Positions 7,947 through 61,315 of a DNA stretch of 64,000 nucleotides are shown piece by piece. A program made the translations under genes and the position numbers. Below the pieces are notes generated by a model. It saw only the letters and a program-made list of their open reading frames with translations. It did not search any database and was not told where the DNA came from. How positions within the stretch are numbered: the stretch's first letter is position 1; every line of letters starts with the position of its first letter. The stretch is from Waddlia chondrophila WSU 86-1044 (lineage in GTDB: Bacteria > Chlamydiota > Chlamydiia > Chlamydiales > CAMCWV01), in assembly GCA_945882915.1 (NCBI GenBank), contig CAMCWV010000002.1, positions 43,821-107,820 on the forward strand, given 5' to 3'.

Positions 7947-8657
7947 TTAAACGCGGTAGGGGGCAGGAAATTCGGGATGCTCAAGCAAAAACTCCTGGAT
8001 CCCCTTATTGCGCAAAAGACAAGCAGGACACTTCAAACACCCCTGAAGAGACACTCCTTCATAACAAGTGATCGTCTCTTCCAGAAGATACCCCAAGACC
8101 CCAAGGCGGTATCCAAGCTCCATTGTCTCTTTCTTTGACATCGTGACTAAGGGAGTACGGATTTCAAATGAAGGGTCATCTAAATCAAGACGCAAAATCT
8201 CCTGCATCTTGTCCATATAACTGCGTGAACAATCACGGTATCCCGAATTTGATCCATCGACTCCTATAACGCCCATGTAAATGCTAGTAGCACCTACATG
8301 GGCAGCGAAAATTGCGCCTAACCGCGCCCACAAACCATTTCTTCCAACAACAAGTGTATTAGGTACTTTGCCTGAAGGATGGATAATCTCAAGGGAAGGA
8401 TTCATCAACGCATTATCGGTAATCGACTGCAAACAGTCAGCGTTAACAACAACGTGAGCCACTCCCCAATTTTTACAGATTTTTTCTGCTTGATGGAGCT
8501 CAGGAGCGTGTCTTTGCCCATAGGTAAACGAGAGGCCAATAACCTCGCTTTTAGAAAACTCTTCTATAGCCAATGCTAAACAAAGAGACGAGTCCATCCC
8601 ACCAGAGTGGATGACAATCGTTTTTGGCTTAACTGTGAGTTGGTTTTTAAACTTCAT
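7947..8657 (-). CDS. queC: 7-cyano-7-deazaguanine synthase
   Basis: 236 aa. PP-loop HSGGMDSS and a C-terminal Cys cluster CYEGVSLQGCLKCPAC. Confidence 0.9.
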   Translation of the reverse strand: MKFKNQLTVKPKTIVIHSGGMDSSLCLALAIEEFSKSEVIGLSFTYGQRHAPELHQAEKICKNWGVAHVVVNADCLQSITDNALMNPSLEIIHPSGKVPNTLVVGRNGLWARLGAIFAAHVGATSIYMGVIGVDGSNSGYRDCSRSYMDKMQEILRLDLDDPSFEIRTPLVTMSKKETMELGYRLGVLGYLLEETITCYEGVSLQGCLKCPACLLRNKGIQEFLLEHPEFPAPYRV

Positions 8658-11981: not shown

Positions 11982-12058
11982 ATATATACTCCTCGTAGTT
12001 GAAAACGGGAATTTGGACTAGCGCGAAAGCTCCCGTTTTCAGCTAAGAGGAGTATATA
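11982..12058. repeat. R1 short form
   Basis: atatatactcctcgtagttgaaaacgggaatttggactagcgcgaaagctcccgttttcagctaagaggagtatata. Confidence 0.85.
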
Positions 12059-13180: not shown

Positions 13181-13281
13181 ATATATACTCCTCGTAGTTG
13201 AAAACGGGAATTTGGGCTAGCGCGAAAGCTCCCGGGGCTTTGGCGCCGTCCAAGTTCCCATTTTCAACTACGAGGAGTATA
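13181..13281. repeat. R1 long form (about 100-bp near-perfect palindrome)
   Basis: atatatactcctcgtagttgaaaacgggaatttgggctagcgcgaaagctcccggggctttggcgccgtccaagttcccattttcaactacgaggagtata. Preceded by the R5 fragment ttatagtcga. Confidence 0.9.
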
Positions 13282-15581: not shown

Positions 15582-15689
15582 AGGCTTAGGTCCCAGCTAT
15601 ACGTTTTAAAAATAAATCCTTTGCTTTATATACGGACATATTCCTATCCCATTGATTTACAAGCAACCAAAAAAAGTCAGAACGACAAA

Positions 15690-15950
15690 AAGGGTGTCGC
15701 CGCTTAATTACCGCTGCCGCGGTTTAAAAAACAACCACCAACTCCGCGCCCCCTTCTCTTTTCTCTTGTTTTTCTCTCACGTTCTCTCACGTTCTCTCAG
15801 GCCTCTGTGTTTCAAAAAACAGATATTAAGATTTTTGAAACACAGAGGCGTGAGAGAACGTGAGAGAAAGAAAAAGGCCTAAAAATGTGGGTAATGACAA
15901 GGGCTTTGGCGCCGTCCAAATTCCCGTTTTCAACTACGAGGAGTATATAT
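15690..15950. repeat. composite: truncated R7 end + spacer + R3 hairpin + R6 terminus + R1 right arm (inverted copy of part of 3515-3700)
   Basis: R3 hairpin at 15773-15869. R6 terminus aggcctaaaaatgtgggtaatgacaagg at 15878-15900. Then gctttggcgccgtccaaattcccgttttcaactacgaggagtatatat at 15901-15950. Confidence 0.8.
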
Positions 15951-29978: not shown

Positions 29979-30036
29979 ACCTAAATCGTTTACCGCCCCC
30001 TCAACTCTCCGCTGCTCGCATATAGCATTTTTTTTA

Positions 30037-30430
30037 AAAACCGCGTAAGCGGCAATTAAGCGGCGAAGCCGTGGCAGACGCTAGCCGTAGGTGACCAAAG
30101 GGAGCCTACGGAATTTTTAACCGGCGATTCGGAGCCACGGCAGTGGCGATACGCTAAACTACCTGTCGCCGCTGTCCGCGGCTTATGGTTTTTATATACT
30201 CCTCGTAGTTGAAAACGGGAATTTGGACTAGCGCCAAAGCCCCGTTTTCAACTACGAGGAGTATATGTCTGCATTTCCGTAGGCTCCTTTCAGTCACCTA
30301 CGGCTAACATCTGCCACGGCCTTGCCGCTTAACTACCGCTTGCGCGGTTTTCTAAAAAACAACCACCAACTCCGATCTCCCTTCTCTTCTCTCTTGTATT
30401 TCCTCTCACGCCTCTGTGTTTCAAAAAATG
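30037..30430. repeat. R7 element carrying a nested R1 short form, followed by spacer and half R3
   Basis: R7 at 30037-30352 is an inverted copy of 3683-3930, with R1 (30194-30266) inserted. 30353-30430 holds the spacer aaaaaacaaccaccaactccg... and the left arm only of R3 (ctctcacgcctctgtgtttcaaaaaa). Confidence 0.85.
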
Positions 30431-34630: not shown

Positions 34631-34779
34631 ATATCCTCCTCTTAGCTGAAAACGGGAAAAATTATCCTAAACAAGCGCTTGCCCTTTCTAGAAGGTAACC
34701 CTTTAATCGCTACGGGCTTCTTCTCTTTTATTCTTTTGTGCGCTGCCCAAGTTCCCATTTTCAGCTACGAGGAGTATAT
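34631..34779. repeat. R1 copy whose interior is replaced by an R2-flank segment with the R2 hairpin deleted
   Basis: The left arm atatcctcctcttagctgaaaacggga runs into aaaattatcctaaacaagcgcttgccctttctagaaggtaac|cctttaatcgctacgggcttcttctc. The right arm is gttcccattttcagctacgaggagtata. Compare 63655-63957, where the full R2 is present. Confidence 0.75.
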
Positions 34780-34942
34780 ACTCCTCGTAGTTGAAAACGG
34801 GAATTTGGACTAGCGCGAAAGCTCCCGCGGCTGAACGATCGTAAGTGCCTTAGTATTAGAAATACAAAGGGTACTTGCGATCGTTCAGCCCCGGGGCTTT
34901 GGCGCCGTCCAAGTTTCCATTTTCAGCTACGAGGAGTATATA
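34776..34942. repeat. R1 longest form with R8 hairpin (34829-34890) in its centre, abutting the previous R1
   Basis: tatatactcctcgtagttgaaaacgggaatttggactagcgcgaaagctcccgc[ggctgaacgatcgtaagtgcc..gggtacttgcgatcgttcagcc]ccggggctttggcgccgtccaagtttccattttcagctacgaggagtata. Confidence 0.9.
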
Positions 34943-39300: not shown

Positions 39301-39466
39301 CTATACTCCGCTTAGCTGAAAACGGGAATTTGGACTAACGCGAAAGCTCCCGCGGCTGAACGATCGCAAGTGCCTTAGTATTAGAAATACAAAGGGCACT
39401 TGCGATCGTTCAGCCCCGGGGCTTTGGCGCCGTCCAAGTTCCCATTTTCAGCTAAGCGGAGTATAT
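39301..39466. repeat. R1 longest form with R8 (39354-39415)
   Basis: ctatactccgcttagctgaaaacgggaatttggactaacgcgaaagctcccgc[R8]ccggggctttggcgccgtccaagttcccattttcagctaagcggagtata. Confidence 0.9.
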
Positions 39467-42823: not shown

Positions 42824-43309
42824 GTGAGAATCGGCGTCCTTAATCAACAATCTTCTCTTCCCATTGACAAGCCCAGTGTCAGGAGTGTCGTGCGCGCTTT
42901 CCTCAAGCTTGAAGAGGTCAGCTGCAATGAAGTTTCCATCCATTTTATAGACACCAAAGAAACTTGCCGCATCCACAACGACTATTTTGGAGACCCCACT
43001 ACCACCGATTGCATGTCCTTTCCTCTCATGACCTTCCCGCTAGAAGACCAAGCTGATGCTTACCGCCTTTTAGGAGACGTCTTTGTCTGCCCAGAGACAG
43101 CACTCAACTACACCGCTGAACATGGCGGAAATCCCTACGAAGAAACCACCCTTTACATCATACATGGGATGCTTCATTTACTTGGCTATGATGACCGAAA
43201 AAAAGCTGATCTCAAAAAAATGAGAGAAGCAGAAGCCAAACACATGAAAAACCTCAAACAACACAATCTATTAATACAAAGACCCAAAGTATATACTCCT
43301 CTTAGCTGA
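42824..43309 (+). CDS. ybeY: rRNA maturation endoribonuclease YbeY
   Basis: GTG start. Zinc motif HGMLHLLGYDD. The last 6 codons and the stop (VYTPLS*) lie inside an R1 repeat. Confidence 0.85.
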   Translation: MRIGVLNQQSSLPIDKPSVRSVVRAFLKLEEVSCNEVSIHFIDTKETCRIHNDYFGDPTTTDCMSFPLMTFPLEDQADAYRLLGDVFVCPETALNYTAEHGGNPYEETTLYIIHGMLHLLGYDDRKKADLKKMREAEAKHMKNLKQHNLLIQRPKVYTPLS

Positions 43310-43362
43310 AAACGGGAATTTGGACGGCGCCAAAGCCCCGTTTTCAGCTAAGAGGAGTATAT
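43290..43362. repeat. R1 short form overlapping the ybeY 3' end
   Basis: tatatactcctcttagctgaaaacgggaatttggacggcgccaaagccccgttttcagctaagaggagtatat. Confidence 0.9.
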
Positions 43363-50685: not shown

Positions 50686-50860
50686 ATATATTCCTCTTAG
50701 CTGAAAACGGGAATTTGGACCGCGCGAAAGCCGCGTTTTCAGCTAAGCGGAGTGTAGGTTATGATGCTGAACAATCTGTCACGGCTTCTCCGTTTAATCG
50801 CGCGGCTTTCGCGCTATCTGAGCCTGTCATTTGAGATTTAATCGACTATAAAGAGAGCTC
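50686..50860. repeat. R1 short form (50686-50757) + R7-end fragment + R5 arm (50818-50860)
   Basis: atattcctcttagctgaaaacgggaatttggaccgcgcgaaagccgcgttttcagctaagcggagtgta. Then aacaatctgtcacggcttctccgtttaatcgcgcggctttcgcg. Then tctgagcctgtcatttgagatttaatcgactata. Confidence 0.8.
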
Positions 50861-52765: not shown

Positions 52766-52775
52766 GAATTAACCT

Positions 52776-52940
52776 GTACTCCTCTTAGTTGAAAATGGGG
52801 ATTTGGGCTAGCGCGAAAGCTCCCGCGGCTGAACGATCGTAAGTGCCTTAGTATCAGAAATACAAAGGGCGCTTGCGATCGTTCAGCCCCAGGGCTTTGG
52901 CGCCGTCCAAGTTCCCATTTTCAGCTAAGAGGAGTATATA
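52776..52940. repeat. R1 longest form with R8 (52827-52888)
   Basis: gtactcctcttagttgaaaatggggatttgggctagcgcgaaagctcccgc[R8]ccagggctttggcgccgtccaagttcccattttcagctaagaggagtatata. Confidence 0.9.
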
Positions 52941-53298: not shown

Positions 53299-54099
53299 TT
53301 ACATCATATTTGCAAACTCAGAAACAAACCACTGAAGGCGACCACGCATACGGTGGAGTGCCTTGCTGTGGATCTGAGAAACGCGGGACTCGCTAATCCC
53401 CATTAATTGACCTATCTCCTTAAGCATCAAGTTCTCGTAGTAATAAAGAACCAGAACTGTTCGTTCCTGCTCGGGCAGTTCCGTAACTGCTTTTTCCAAA
53501 AGTTGGTTAAACTCATTGCGGTCTGCCATGTCGTAACTGGTCAGCGCTTTGTCATCAGCTATGCGATCTGCCATCGAGACACTCTCTGGATCGTCAGTAA
53601 CCGTTGCATCCAAAGGAATCATCGTAGCAGGACGAACCCGGTGGTAGAGATCTTCGAGCTCTTCAGCCGAAATCCCCAAACGCTTTGAAAGCTCTCCGTC
53701 GGTCGGCTCCCTGCCCAGCTCATGCTGCAGTGCAAGCTGTGCCTTCCCTATTTGGTTAGCCTTCTGATGGACGCTGCGCGGAACCCAGTCCAAAGAGCGC
53801 ATCTCATCAATAATCGCCCCTTTAATCAATAAAATCGCGTAGGTTTCGAACTTATTCTTCATTGTAGGGTCATACTTCTCGATGGCCTTGATCAATCCCA
53901 AAACACCCGTGGAGTACATATCGTCTATCTTAACATGAGAAGGAAGACCAACAGCAAGACGACCAGCAACGTACTTTACGAGATGCAAGTACCTTGTAAT
54001 CAACTCATCGCGCAATCCTAGCACCTGAGTTTTTTTATATTCTTGCCAAAGCTCATTAGGGTGTCCGAGCTTCTTATTTTTGTCGTTTGTCTGTTTCAT
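53299..54099 (-). CDS. fliA: RNA polymerase sigma-28 factor (FliA/WhiG family)
   Basis: 266 aa. Region 2 YLHLVKYVAGRL / GVLGLIKAIEKYDP, the FliA hallmark LDWVPRS, and the region 4.2 HTH LKEIGQLMGISESRVSQIHSKAL. Confidence 0.9.
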   Translation of the reverse strand: MKQTNDKNKKLGHPNELWQEYKKTQVLGLRDELITRYLHLVKYVAGRLAVGLPSHVKIDDMYSTGVLGLIKAIEKYDPTMKNKFETYAILLIKGAIIDEMRSLDWVPRSVHQKANQIGKAQLALQHELGREPTDGELSKRLGISAEELEDLYHRVRPATMIPLDATVTDDPESVSMADRIADDKALTSYDMADRNEFNQLLEKAVTELPEQERTVLVLYYYENLMLKEIGQLMGISESRVSQIHSKALHRMRGRLQWFVSEFANMM

Positions 54100-54263
54100 A
54101 TACTCCTCTTAGCTGAAAACGGGAATTTGGACTAGTGCGAAAGCTCCCGCGGCTGAACGATCGTAAGTGCCTTATTATTAGAAATACAAAGGGCACTTGC
54201 GATCGTTCAGCCGCGCGGCTTTGGCGCCGTCCAAATTCCCGTTTTCAACTACGAGGAGTATAT
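54098..54263. repeat. R1 longest form with R8 (54151-54212), abutting the fliA start codon
   Basis: On the minus strand the element ends ...gctaagaggagtatATG, where ATG is the fliA start. Confidence 0.9.
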
Positions 54264-58735: not shown

Positions 58736-58838
58736 ATATACTCCTCTTAGCTGAAAACTGGAATTTGGGCTAGTGCGAAAGCTCCCGGGGCTTTCGCACT
58801 AGCCCAAATTCCAGTTTTCAGCTAAGAGGAACATATAC
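58736..58838. repeat. R1 long form, essentially perfect palindrome, in the flhB-flhA spacer
   Basis: atatactcctcttagctgaaaactggaatttgggctagtgcgaaagctcccggggctttcgcactagcccaaattccagttttcagctaagaggaacatat. Confidence 0.9.
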
Positions 58839-59975: not shown

Positions 59976-60003
59976 TCTAGCCTCTTTATTCTACCGCTGG
60001 TTG

Positions 60004-60103
60004 TATATACTCCTCGTAGTTGAAAACGGGAATTTGGACTAGCGCGAAAGCTCCCGGGGCTTTGGCGCCGTCCAAGTTCCCATTTTCAGCTAAGAGGCGT
60101 ATA
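60004..60103. repeat. R1 long form
   Basis: tatatactcctcgtagttgaaaacgggaatttggactagcgcgaaagctcccggggctttggcgccgtccaagttcccattttcagctaagaggcgtata. Confidence 0.9.
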
Positions 60104-60206
60104 GTTAAAAAACAGGGTGAGTTGCAAGAATTTTCTGTACACTTCCACAGCAAAAAGAAAGTATTAAAGATTTTCACCACAGAGACGTGGGAGAACACAG
60201 AGAGAA

Positions 60207-60610
60207 ATATACTCCGCTTAACTGAAAACGGGAATTTGGGCTAGCGCGAAAGCTCCCGCGGCTGAACGATCGCAAGTGCCTTATTATTAGAAATACAAAG
60301 GGCACTTGCGATCGTTCCGCCCCGGGGCTTTGGCCTTGTCATTACCCACATCTTAAAACAACCAATTTGCCCTAAACAAGCGGTTGTCCTCTCCAGAAGG
60401 TAACGTGGACCGCCTAAGGTCTGGGATCTAACCTGTTACCAAACGAACGTTTGTTGTAGACTCAATCTGGAATCCCAGACCTTAGGCGGCCCACGTTACC
60501 TTGCTGCATAAGGCAGTCATGTTTTTGAGCAAATCGGCTATCCCAAAATGTGGGTAATGACAAGGGCTTTCGCGCAGTCCAAATTCCCGTTTTTAGCTAA
60601 GCGGAGTATA
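60207..60610. repeat. composite: R1 with R8 (60260-60321) and an R6 element (60334-60565, itself containing R2 at 60389-60503) inserted in its right half
   Basis: ...cccggggctttgg|ccttgtcattacccacat ... atgtgggtaatgacaagg|gctttcgcgcagtccaaattcccgtttttagctaagcggagtata. Confidence 0.85.
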
Positions 60611-60620
60611 GAGAGAGAGG

Positions 60621-60655: not shown

Positions 60656-60899
60656 TAAACGAAACTGCTTTACGCTGTACTAGCCGCAGGTTGGGGTGTA
60701 AACTTTGTGCTGTTTTTTATCCTAACAGCCGAAGGCTGATCCTGCCTATCTTGTTCTTGCATTTCTCTCACTCCTCTTGCTTCTCTGCTTGCTCATTTTA
60801 TAAAGAAAATGGTACCATTTAACACTTATAACTTGCTGATCCAGTGCGCGGCAAACCCCATCCTTTAGGGCGGGGTCAAGAGCGCATTACGCGGCTAGA

Positions 60900-61315
60900 C
60901 TAGTGAGGGGTTTGTTGCTGTTCAATGTACTGACGAATAAGTGCAATTGGGGCTCCACCGCAACTACCAGCAAAATAACTGGGTGACCACAAAGCATTGC
61001 CCACAACTTATTGCGAATACTAAGGTATTTCTTTTTTCGAATTAAGTGACTTGACACACCCTTTAAACTGTTTACTAATTTAGAAACAGCTGCTTTAGGA
61101 GGGTAATTCACTAGCAAATGGACGTGGTCGTCTTCTCCATCGAATTCTATAAGTTGAGCTCCAAAGTCTGAGCAAACACTAGAAAAGATTGGATGCATTG
61201 TGTCTAGAATTTCTCTTGTAAAAACTTCTCGGCGGTATTTTGTAACAAAGACCATGTGAACATGCATTAGAAAAACACAATGTCTACCATGCCTAATATC
61301 GTTGTTTTTTTTCAT
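60900..61315 (-). mobile_element. tnpA: IS200/IS605-family Y1 transposase gene tnpA, disrupted by a 1-nt frameshift
   Basis: HGRHCVFLMHVHMVFVTKYRREVF and DDHVHLLV (HUH) motifs. After ...RNKLW the annotated frame reads AMLCGHPVILL, but the +2 frame reads GNALWSPSYFAGSCGGAPIALIRQYIEQQQTPH* (the canonical C-terminus with the catalytic Tyr region), ending at 60900. The frameshift is near 60999-61003. A hairpin lies at 60841-60885. Confidence 0.8.

Follow-up and report, generated by a model that had tools for sequence, protein, structure and literature searches.

Chlamydiae are usually regarded as repeat-poor. Insertion sequences of the IS630 group target CTAG and duplicate the TA, and the small dispersed repeats of cyanobacteria are nested, with one miniature inverted-repeat transposable element (MITE) lying within another. 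MITEs have been listed as a class (PMC3733652). In REPIN/RAYT systems, hairpin-forming doublets of repetitive extragenic palindromic (REP) units are moved by REP-associated tyrosine transposases (Bertels and Rainey 2011; Nunvar 2010, PMC2817692). In TIRYT or TIRtron elements, long inverted repeats at the termini enclose a Y1 transposase (Di Nocera 2013, PMC3733652; subclass 2.1 of Quentin 2018, PMC6006769). Some of these repeats are 'double palindromic', and single, dimeric or grouped copies occur elsewhere in the genome (PMC3733652, PMC6006769). They carry GGGG[AT][CG]A[CG], and most of the proteins are extended at the C-terminus by a helix-turn-helix (PMC6006769). Literature searches gave no account of MITEs or RAYTs for Chlamydiae. 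Here we describe two repeats, R1 and R7, in a 64,000-nt stretch (the window) of an uncultured chlamydial genome, contig CAMCWV010000002.1 of assembly GCA_945882915.1. One of two copies of R7 is interrupted by the hairpin R1. We propose that R1 is a non-autonomous MITE that integrated at a TA in R7 copy B by means of an IS630/Tc1-type enzyme, and that R7 is a REPIN-like doublet. We give this explanation as a whole a probability of roughly 0.7.

Filled and empty copies of R7

The two copies of R7 lie in opposite orientation at 3673..3940 (copy A, empty, 268 nt) and 30026..30362 (copy B, filled, 337 nt). Alignment of 30000-30420(+) with 3620-3970(-) using MAFFT showed that they are collinear, with a single large gap of 69 columns that corresponds to R1. 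Both homologous halves reported by the repeat finder abut this gap. The first (I1) pairs 3771-3936 with 30030-30195 over 166 nt at 87% identity, and the second (I2) pairs 3633-3773 with 30262-30402 over 141 nt at 93% identity. The BLAST E-values of the halves are ~1e-53 and ~1e-62, respectively, therefore the match did not arise by chance. Homology runs ~65-75 nt past R7 on one side only (30363-30427 versus 3672-3598). This flank (30363..30427, +) belongs to another repeat family (...CTCTCACGCCTCTGTGTTTCAAAAA; families D9, D10 and D12) and is common to both R7 copies and a locus at 15.7 kb.

R7 was delimited with a covariance model built from 20 units, which matched 40 times across the window and the other loci examined. 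Each copy consists of two inverted ~126-nt units arranged tail to tail. In copy A the units are A2 at 3673-3803(+) and A1 at 3814-3940(-), and the matches score 108 and 123 bits. In copy B, unit B1 occupies 30026-30152(+) (114 bits) and unit B2, which contains R1, occupies 30163..30362(-). The model match to B2 (30245-30362(-), 89 bits) is truncated by R1, and hairpin 4 of this unit lies beyond R1 at 30168-30182. The initial annotation had described the copies as collinear but for one difference, as the alignment confirms. Its limits for R7 (3683-3930 and 30037-30352) were slightly narrow, and the 'long inverted-repeat element' it recognised does have inverted arms but is in fact a doublet of a conserved structured unit.

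The R1 copy in B2 has an ACTCC...GGAGT core at 30198-30262. The MITE proper is 67 bp long (30197..30263; T-ACTCCTCGTAGTTGAAAACGGG...CCCGTTTTCAACTACGAGGAGT-A) and represents the short form of its family. It lies between two TA dinucleotides, at 30195..30196 and 30264..30265, which are taken as the putative target-site duplication. On the strand of copy B, the homologous site in copy A, 3769..3772(-), reads ATTT, and copy B would have had ATAT there before insertion. The empty-site sequence ggtttttatttgtcggcatttcc corresponds to 3757-3779 read in reverse complement. The initial annotation had placed it at about 3761-3783, ~4 nt off. Removal of 69 nt from copy B leaves ggtttttATATgtctgcatttcc, and copy A reads ggtttttATTTgtcggcatttcc; both are 23 nt long and differ by two substitutions with no indel. 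Copy A is an imperfect proxy of the pre-insertion site, having AT[T]T where copy B has AT[A]T. R1 had first been given as 73 bp, which is its length with both ATAT flanks (30194-30266). The actual difference between the copies is 69 nt, and the empty copy has one ATAT-equivalent (ATTT).

The R1 family, its target and its movement

With the outer 22 nt of the repeat as query and up to 4 mismatches allowed, 34 R1 ends were found in the window, of which 14 pairs delimit complete elements. The bounding repeat of the R1 type reads TACTCCTCNTAGNTGAAAACGGG. All copies are intergenic, at a density of ~1 per 3.7 kb, and more ends are present in flanking contigs. The elements are 67-166 nt long, lack coding capacity and fall into three size classes of ~67 nt (five copies, including that in R7), ~94 nt and ~166 nt, all of which are perfect hairpins. 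Terminal inverted repeats measure ~31 nt (ACTCCTCNTAGNTGAAAACGGGAATTTGGAC) in the long forms, and the 67-bp short form has a 22-bp stem. The copy in R7 copy B folds as such a 22-bp-stem hairpin at -29.8 kcal/mol as DNA. The other short copies are at 5357..5426, 11985-12056, 43292-43361 and 50687-50756 (limits approximate), and ~94-nt copies are at 13184..13281, 23475-23570, 58737-58835 and 60006-60103. The ~166-nt copies (family D3) are at 39302..39465, 34777-34940, 52775-52938 and 54099-54262. R1 sequences matched no named element and were not present in any paper found.

The ~166-nt copies carry an extra apical palindrome of 66 nt (CTGAACGATCGCAAGTGCC...GGCACTTGCGATCGTTCAG) at 39355-39420, 54155-54220, 52830-52895 and 34835-34900. 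The family thus forms a nested, 'Russian doll' series of palindromes, in which short forms appear to derive from different long subtypes, at least twice. A still longer variant with the inner palindrome CCTTGTCATTACCCACATTTT / AAAATGTGGGTAATGACAAGG was seen at 3500-4095 and 60207-60611, split in both places by later insertions flanked by TA. The insert at 3500-4095 comprises another palindromic repeat and the entire R7 copy A, so that copy A is itself nested within an R1-type element. The mechanically called open reading frames (ORFs) 5021-5434 and 59986-60244 traverse R1 copies and almost certainly do not represent genes.

To define the target, the bases immediately outside ACTCC were compared at all 34 ends. 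Position -1 is T in 32/34, -2 is A in 33/34 and -3 is T in 34/34, so that TA occupies -3/-2 at 33 of the 34 ends. Position -4 is either A (26) or C (8), and position -5 has background composition. In at least 6 paired copies position -4 is discordant, being A at one end of the element and C at the opposite end. A 4-bp duplication of ATAT was rejected because of this discordance, as was a 3-bp duplication (TAT or ATA). Either would need repeated mutation of the outermost base, and a 2-bp TA duplication in an (A/C)TA(T/G) context needs none. The flanking bases thus indicate that R1 probably targets TA within (A/C)TA(T/G), duplicates 2 bp and is 67 bp long in its short form. The net gain of 69 nt over the empty paralogue equals 67 + 2. 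The TA-type duplication proposed at the outset, as in IS630/Tc1-like MITEs, is therefore upheld and sharpened by the flank counts, and the exact duplication, which had been called unresolvable, can be narrowed further since ATAT is removed and TA remains.

The data best support the following sequence of events. The R7 doublet, together with ~70 nt of the adjoining repeat, would have been duplicated, making A1/B1 (87% identical) and A2/B2 (93% identical) orthologous pairs. A short-form R1 would then have integrated at the TA of an ATAT within the AT-rich spacer that separates hairpins 3 and 4 in unit B2. The TA would have been duplicated at the site ...TTTTTA-TA-TGTC... with a net gain of 69 nt, and the insertion would finally have become fixed in the sampled population. 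The surroundings of R1 agree with the AT-rich site described earlier. By analogy with known elements, a DDE transposase supplied in trans would bind the inverted repeats, excise R1 and integrate it at a TA with a 2-bp stagger. Because the inverted repeats are combined with TA, the balance tips slightly toward an IS630/Tc1-mariner-like enzyme. R1 stretches the spacer from 25 nt to 94 nt. Given how constant the length of this spacer is in the unit family, the arm has probably ceased to serve as a transposase substrate.

Several observations weigh against this explanation. In the window and in ~60 kb of additional contigs of the same organism (~125 kb in total), we found neither a transposase gene with R1-type ends nor any DDE transposase, and Pfam annotation of the window genes likewise gave none. 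The R7-type Y1 transposase described below was not found in the ~125 kb either. No strain has an orthologous empty site for any R1 copy, and the sole 'empty' site is a paralogue with a substitution in the target core. The string at the filled site fits equally a TA duplication with a 67-bp element, a blunt 69-bp insertion inside T^A, or insertion by a single-strand transposase 3' of (A/C)TAT. Finally, the near-identical long copies at 13183 and 60005 have equal asymmetric flanks, ATAT on the left and ATAGTT on the right, which under the TA model would be coincidence or local reuse of a target.

The last two points are the ones that a single-strand mechanism accommodates. If the palindrome were moved by a Y1/HUH (IS200/IS605-like) or other non-DDE transposase, integration would occur inside T^A or 3' of (A/C)TAT without target duplication, and the terminal ATAT would belong partly to the element. 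In favour of this reading, the two sister copies share the right-hand flank ATAGTT. The entire R1 is one hairpin, Y1 transposases are clearly active in this clade, and the window itself holds a frameshifted IS200-type TnpA at 60887-61315. However, this TnpA is a pseudogene. IS200/IS605 ends are dissimilar, with subterminal, imperfect hairpins and a conserved left flank only, whereas R1 has symmetric 31-bp repeats and symmetric flanks. Moreover, the outermost flanking base (A/C) varies independently on each side, as expected of target DNA and not of element ends. We therefore consider single-strand movement unlikely and retain integration at a TA by a DDE transposase as the preferred mechanism.

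The direction of the event was examined through the spacer between hairpins 3 and 4. This spacer is 21-25 nt long in all 24 units measured, in the window and in other chlamydial metagenome-assembled genomes (MAGs; at least 12 contigs), and its sequence is variable. It measures 25 nt in A2, 25 nt in B2 without R1 and 94 nt in B2 with R1, the only filled copy. The gap ends coincide with the exact termini of the independent R1 family, and no R1 end was found in any other-species locus examined. The constant spacer and the R1-free loci of other species show that the 69-nt block is a derived insertion in copy B. R1 is thus very probably a discrete insertion at a TA, in agreement with the initial annotation that it moved as a discrete unit.

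The converse, that a 69-73-nt segment is ancestral to R7 and was lost from copy A, was named in the initial annotation as the finding that would overturn this view. Deletions at palindrome centres do occur in this organism, since only a 24-nt remnant of R7 copy A is left in locus L028 and another palindrome lacks its 62-nt centre in locus L030, and the R1 forms of 166, 94 and 67 nt resemble a deletion series. Against this, the segment is a complete family member that recurs at 17 or more further sites unrelated to R7, bounded by the same termini, and only a deletion accurate to the single base would leave a spacer of exactly 25 nt. With no trace of R1 in the 24 related units, the ancestral-deletion reading is already contradicted.

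An assembly artefact, or recombination or gene conversion between repeats in place of transposition, is equally improbable: contigs of this organism do break or change synteny within R1 copies (34752-34941, 54169), so these repeats disturb assembly or recombine, but unique R7 sequence continues collinearly on both sides of R1, no other R7-R1 junction is available as a donor, and four further assemblies, which come from different samples and include an NCBI MAG, carry the filled site in identical or almost identical form. The window locus was also recovered from several metagenome assemblies and from the NCBI MAG GCA_947446165.1. Filled copy B has 99.4-100% identity in 4/4 independent assemblies of the same organism that span the site (L001-L004), and empty copy A has 99.5% identity in GCA_947446165.1 (L030). 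The structure is therefore not an accident of assembly. Every R1 copy covered by the other assemblies (strains 98-100% identical) is present in them, with no presence/absence polymorphism that would point to recent activity. R1 ends had zero matches in viral contigs.

The R7 unit and its association with Y1 transposases

Each arm of R7 is one ~126-nt modular unit with four hairpins. Its order is an A/T-rich lead, hairpin 1, hairpin 2, the linker CAGA.G.TAG, hairpin 3 (CCGTAGG-TGAC...GGAA-CCTACGG), the spacer, hairpin 4 (GCCNN...NNGGC) and a GACA tail. In unit B1 hairpins 1 and 2 are followed by the linker CAGACGCTAG, hairpin 3 (CCGTAGG..CCTACGG), a 22-nt spacer, hairpin 4 (GCCACGGCAGTGGC) and a GATAC tail. 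GTAG occurs only within the stem of hairpin 3, and several units have GTGG with a compensatory change. In the unit alignment 96.9% of cells are paired compared with 84.6% in shuffles and 25-49% in slid controls, and double-sided changes affect 12/22 pairs (87 cells), figures that are flattered because the alignment was fitted to the model. Compensatory changes in hairpins 1, 2 and 4 are evident in the raw unit sequences. The predicted hairpins of the R7 unit are well supported by covariation.

The two units of R7 are separated by a gap of ~10 nt, and the same tail-to-tail doublets with a 10-12-nt gap occur in loci L016 and L023. As single-stranded DNA, copy B folds into one long hairpin on which R1 forms its own apical branch (-127 kcal/mol, z = -21); copy A folds at -105 kcal/mol (z = -18). 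A plain intrinsic terminator was considered for R7 and rejected, as only one weak terminator-like match was found, at hairpin 4. Rfam gave nothing above gathering score on R7, only sub-threshold hairpin-type chance matches. The ~125 kb of this organism contain two doublets and one remnant, a weak match (17.7 bits) at 15644..15737(-) consisting of hairpin 1 and part of hairpin 2. No further unit was found by the covariance model in the ~60 kb of extra sequence, and arm-motif scans of genome and metagenome contigs gave other species only. In L028 (ERZ27280263), R7 copy A (window 3712-3917) is replaced between the same flanks (L028 19190-19225) by the 24-nt remnant GCCGCTTAATTGCCGCTTACGCGG, identical to the initial 24 nt of the opposite R7 arm read in reverse complement. 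R7 itself is therefore polymorphic among strains. The remnant could be a palindrome-centre deletion, a strand-switch product or the pre-insertion state.

When species-representative genomes were scanned with the arm motif CAGANGNTAGCCGTAGGTGAC, it matched three other Chlamydiae MAGs, and more contigs were found in JGI metagenomes. In four independent contigs identified by this DNA motif, an ORF of 148-150 aa with a Y1_Tnp domain (Pfam E = 2e-20) lies beside the unit. Two of them have a canonical arrangement, in which the hairpin-4 tails point to the Y1 gene: L017 has a unit at 7315-7439(+), the Y1 gene at 7502-7945 and a unit at 7948-8066(-), and L022 has a unit at 515-645(+), the gene at 687-1130 and a unit at 1154-1286(-). 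In L014 and L013 the gene adjoins a unit in a partial arrangement. A search starting from the protein yielded 101 Y1 homologues, among them proteins labelled 'transposase [Chlamydiia bacterium]' and others that JGI lists as 'REP element-mobilizing transposase RayT'. Most are known from one or two contigs only (per protein cluster). A unit match was found beside the Y1 gene in 4/4 contexts tested from this search, most clearly in L043, with two strong inverted matches (unit 3800-3929(+), Y1 gene 4001-4453, unit 4454-4580(-)). Inverted units thus flank the gene cleanly in L017, L022 and L043, and also in L046, all in related MAGs and not in this genome.

Because the same units flank a Y1 gene elsewhere and R7 has a ~10-nt gap in place of the gene, R7 is a gene-less REPIN-like doublet of Y1-transposase element repeats. 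Its membership in the REPIN/RAYT class is partial. The Y1 protein scores 54-56 bits against the NCBIfam IS200 model (cutoff 55) and 17-23 bits against the REP_Tyr_transpos (RAYT) model (cutoff 80). Its best PDB matches are the TnpA proteins of ISDra2 and IS608 (E ~4e-5), and none is labelled a REP-associated transposase.

Two unusual contexts of the Y1 gene were noted. In MAG CAWBNS01 (L014 3400-3950, L011 1895-5049), the 3' end of the Y1 gene and that of ruvX are inversely duplicated around unit doublets. The resulting perfect palindromes, several hundred bases in length, may reflect true inverted duplications or artefacts of long-read assembly. L022, a metagenome contig of 1287 nt, has a unit in the same orientation at its start (1-126) and end (1154-1286), around the Y1 gene and a third unit. 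The element could be present here in tandem or as a circle, or the assembly could have collapsed at the repeats.

Rearrangements and comparison with known systems

Genes in the window include those for GroEL, BamA-OmpH-LpxD, the type III secretion proteins SctV and SctU, CsrA and a HicAB pair. The nearest named relatives of the GroEL are from Chlamydiota, Chlamydiales and Parachlamydia, at 74-78% identity. Over the window, Rfam detected only one tRNA and the signal recognition particle RNA above gathering score.

Comparison with the other assemblies revealed several rearrangements. In GCA_947446165.1 (L030 12111-13803), a ~12-kb segment between inverted composite repeats (121 nt, 99% complementary; window 3515-3700 and 15700-15900) is inverted, with the YbjN gene followed by HAD hydrolase and TyrRS genes at the inversion. 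Synteny is lost exactly inside 166-nt R1 copies in five loci: L001 and L002 break off at 34941, L036 and L037 begin at 34752, and the first base of L053 falls at 54169. Such breaks could reflect recombination between MITE copies or assembly joins, and the window itself could be chimeric there. Downstream of the tRNA at 28331-28402, an island in GCA_947446165.1 and one ENA assembly (L047 5506-9835, L004 1-1000) replaces the HicAB region; with its genes for a large serine recombinase, a MerR-type helix-turn-helix protein and a primase/AAA_25 protein, the island is an integrative element.

The TnpA gene at 60887-61315(-) is of the classic IS200/IS605 type (NCBIfam, 107 bits), and its C-terminus looks frameshifted after about residue 105. 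Together with the housekeeping genes MarC, TruA and Map, it lies within a 3.3-kb segment between 99-nt inverted repeats (60382-60480 and 63779-63877). The 15-nt tandem repeat AAAAACGCCTCACGG at 23084-23158 has one unit fewer in L001 and L047, therefore its copy number varies between strains. A palindromic element with 53-nt arms at 7761-7911 lacks its central ~62 nt in the NCBI MAG (L030 ~8019-8026), a second case of loss of a palindrome centre.

A MITE nested in another repeat and seen as a filled/empty pair is classical evidence, correct and unsurprising. Less expected are the density of small nested palindromic elements in a chlamydial genome and the recurrence, across environmental Chlamydiota, of a conserved REPIN-like module with four hairpins that is associated with a divergent Y1 clade. 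Nothing was found in the literature on either in Chlamydiota. For a MITE family that fills most intergenic regions of an uncultured chlamydial genome, our results establish where exactly the elements end, which size classes they form and what target they use, and the definition of R1 helps to avoid false ORFs such as those noted above. With a MITE every ~3.7 kb, a REPIN-like system and inversions associated with repeats, this genome is a useful counter-example to repeat-poor Chlamydiae, and the four-hairpin unit with its fixed spacer offers a concrete substrate model for the divergent Y1 clade. We tentatively suggest that the R7 unit and the 150-aa Y1 protein may constitute an undescribed REPIN-RAYT-like system, widespread in environmental Chlamydiota, whose substrate would be the 126-nt four-hairpin module with a fixed 21-25-nt spacer. 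On this suggestion the genome would also host dense, lineage-restricted, TA-targeting MITEs that invade the system and whose copies lie at strain synteny breakpoints.

Among described elements, R1 most resembles the bacterial MITEs derived from IS630/Tc1-mariner, such as Correia/NEMIS of Neisseria and RUP of Streptococcus pneumoniae. It shares with them a small size, the lack of an ORF and long inverted repeats that form a hairpin, as well as high copy number, intergenic sites, an apparent TA duplication and TATA... ends. The CTAG target of IS630 fits the (A/C)TA(T/G) context of R1. R1 differs in its nested palindrome series (67, 94 and 166 nt), its chlamydial host and the fact that no cognate transposase was found. 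The nested repeats of cyanobacteria follow the same filled/empty logic for a host repeat; the organisms and sequences are different and unrelated.

R7 resembles REPINs in that two inverted units ~10 nt apart form one long hairpin, and in that its unit flanks a small Y1 (HUH) transposase gene inversely in related genomes. As in bacterial interspersed mosaic elements (BIMEs), both head-to-head and tail-to-tail dimers of the unit occur. However, the R7 unit is ~126 nt long with four hairpins and a length-constrained spacer, whereas a REP is a single palindrome of 20-40 nt with a terminal GTAG, and R7 has a low copy number, with two doublets in ~125 kb. The chlamydial system differs from TIRYTs in its protein of only ~150 aa and in the unit core CAGANGNTAGCCGTAGGTGAC, and it shares with them a Y1 gene bracketed by long inverted repeats.

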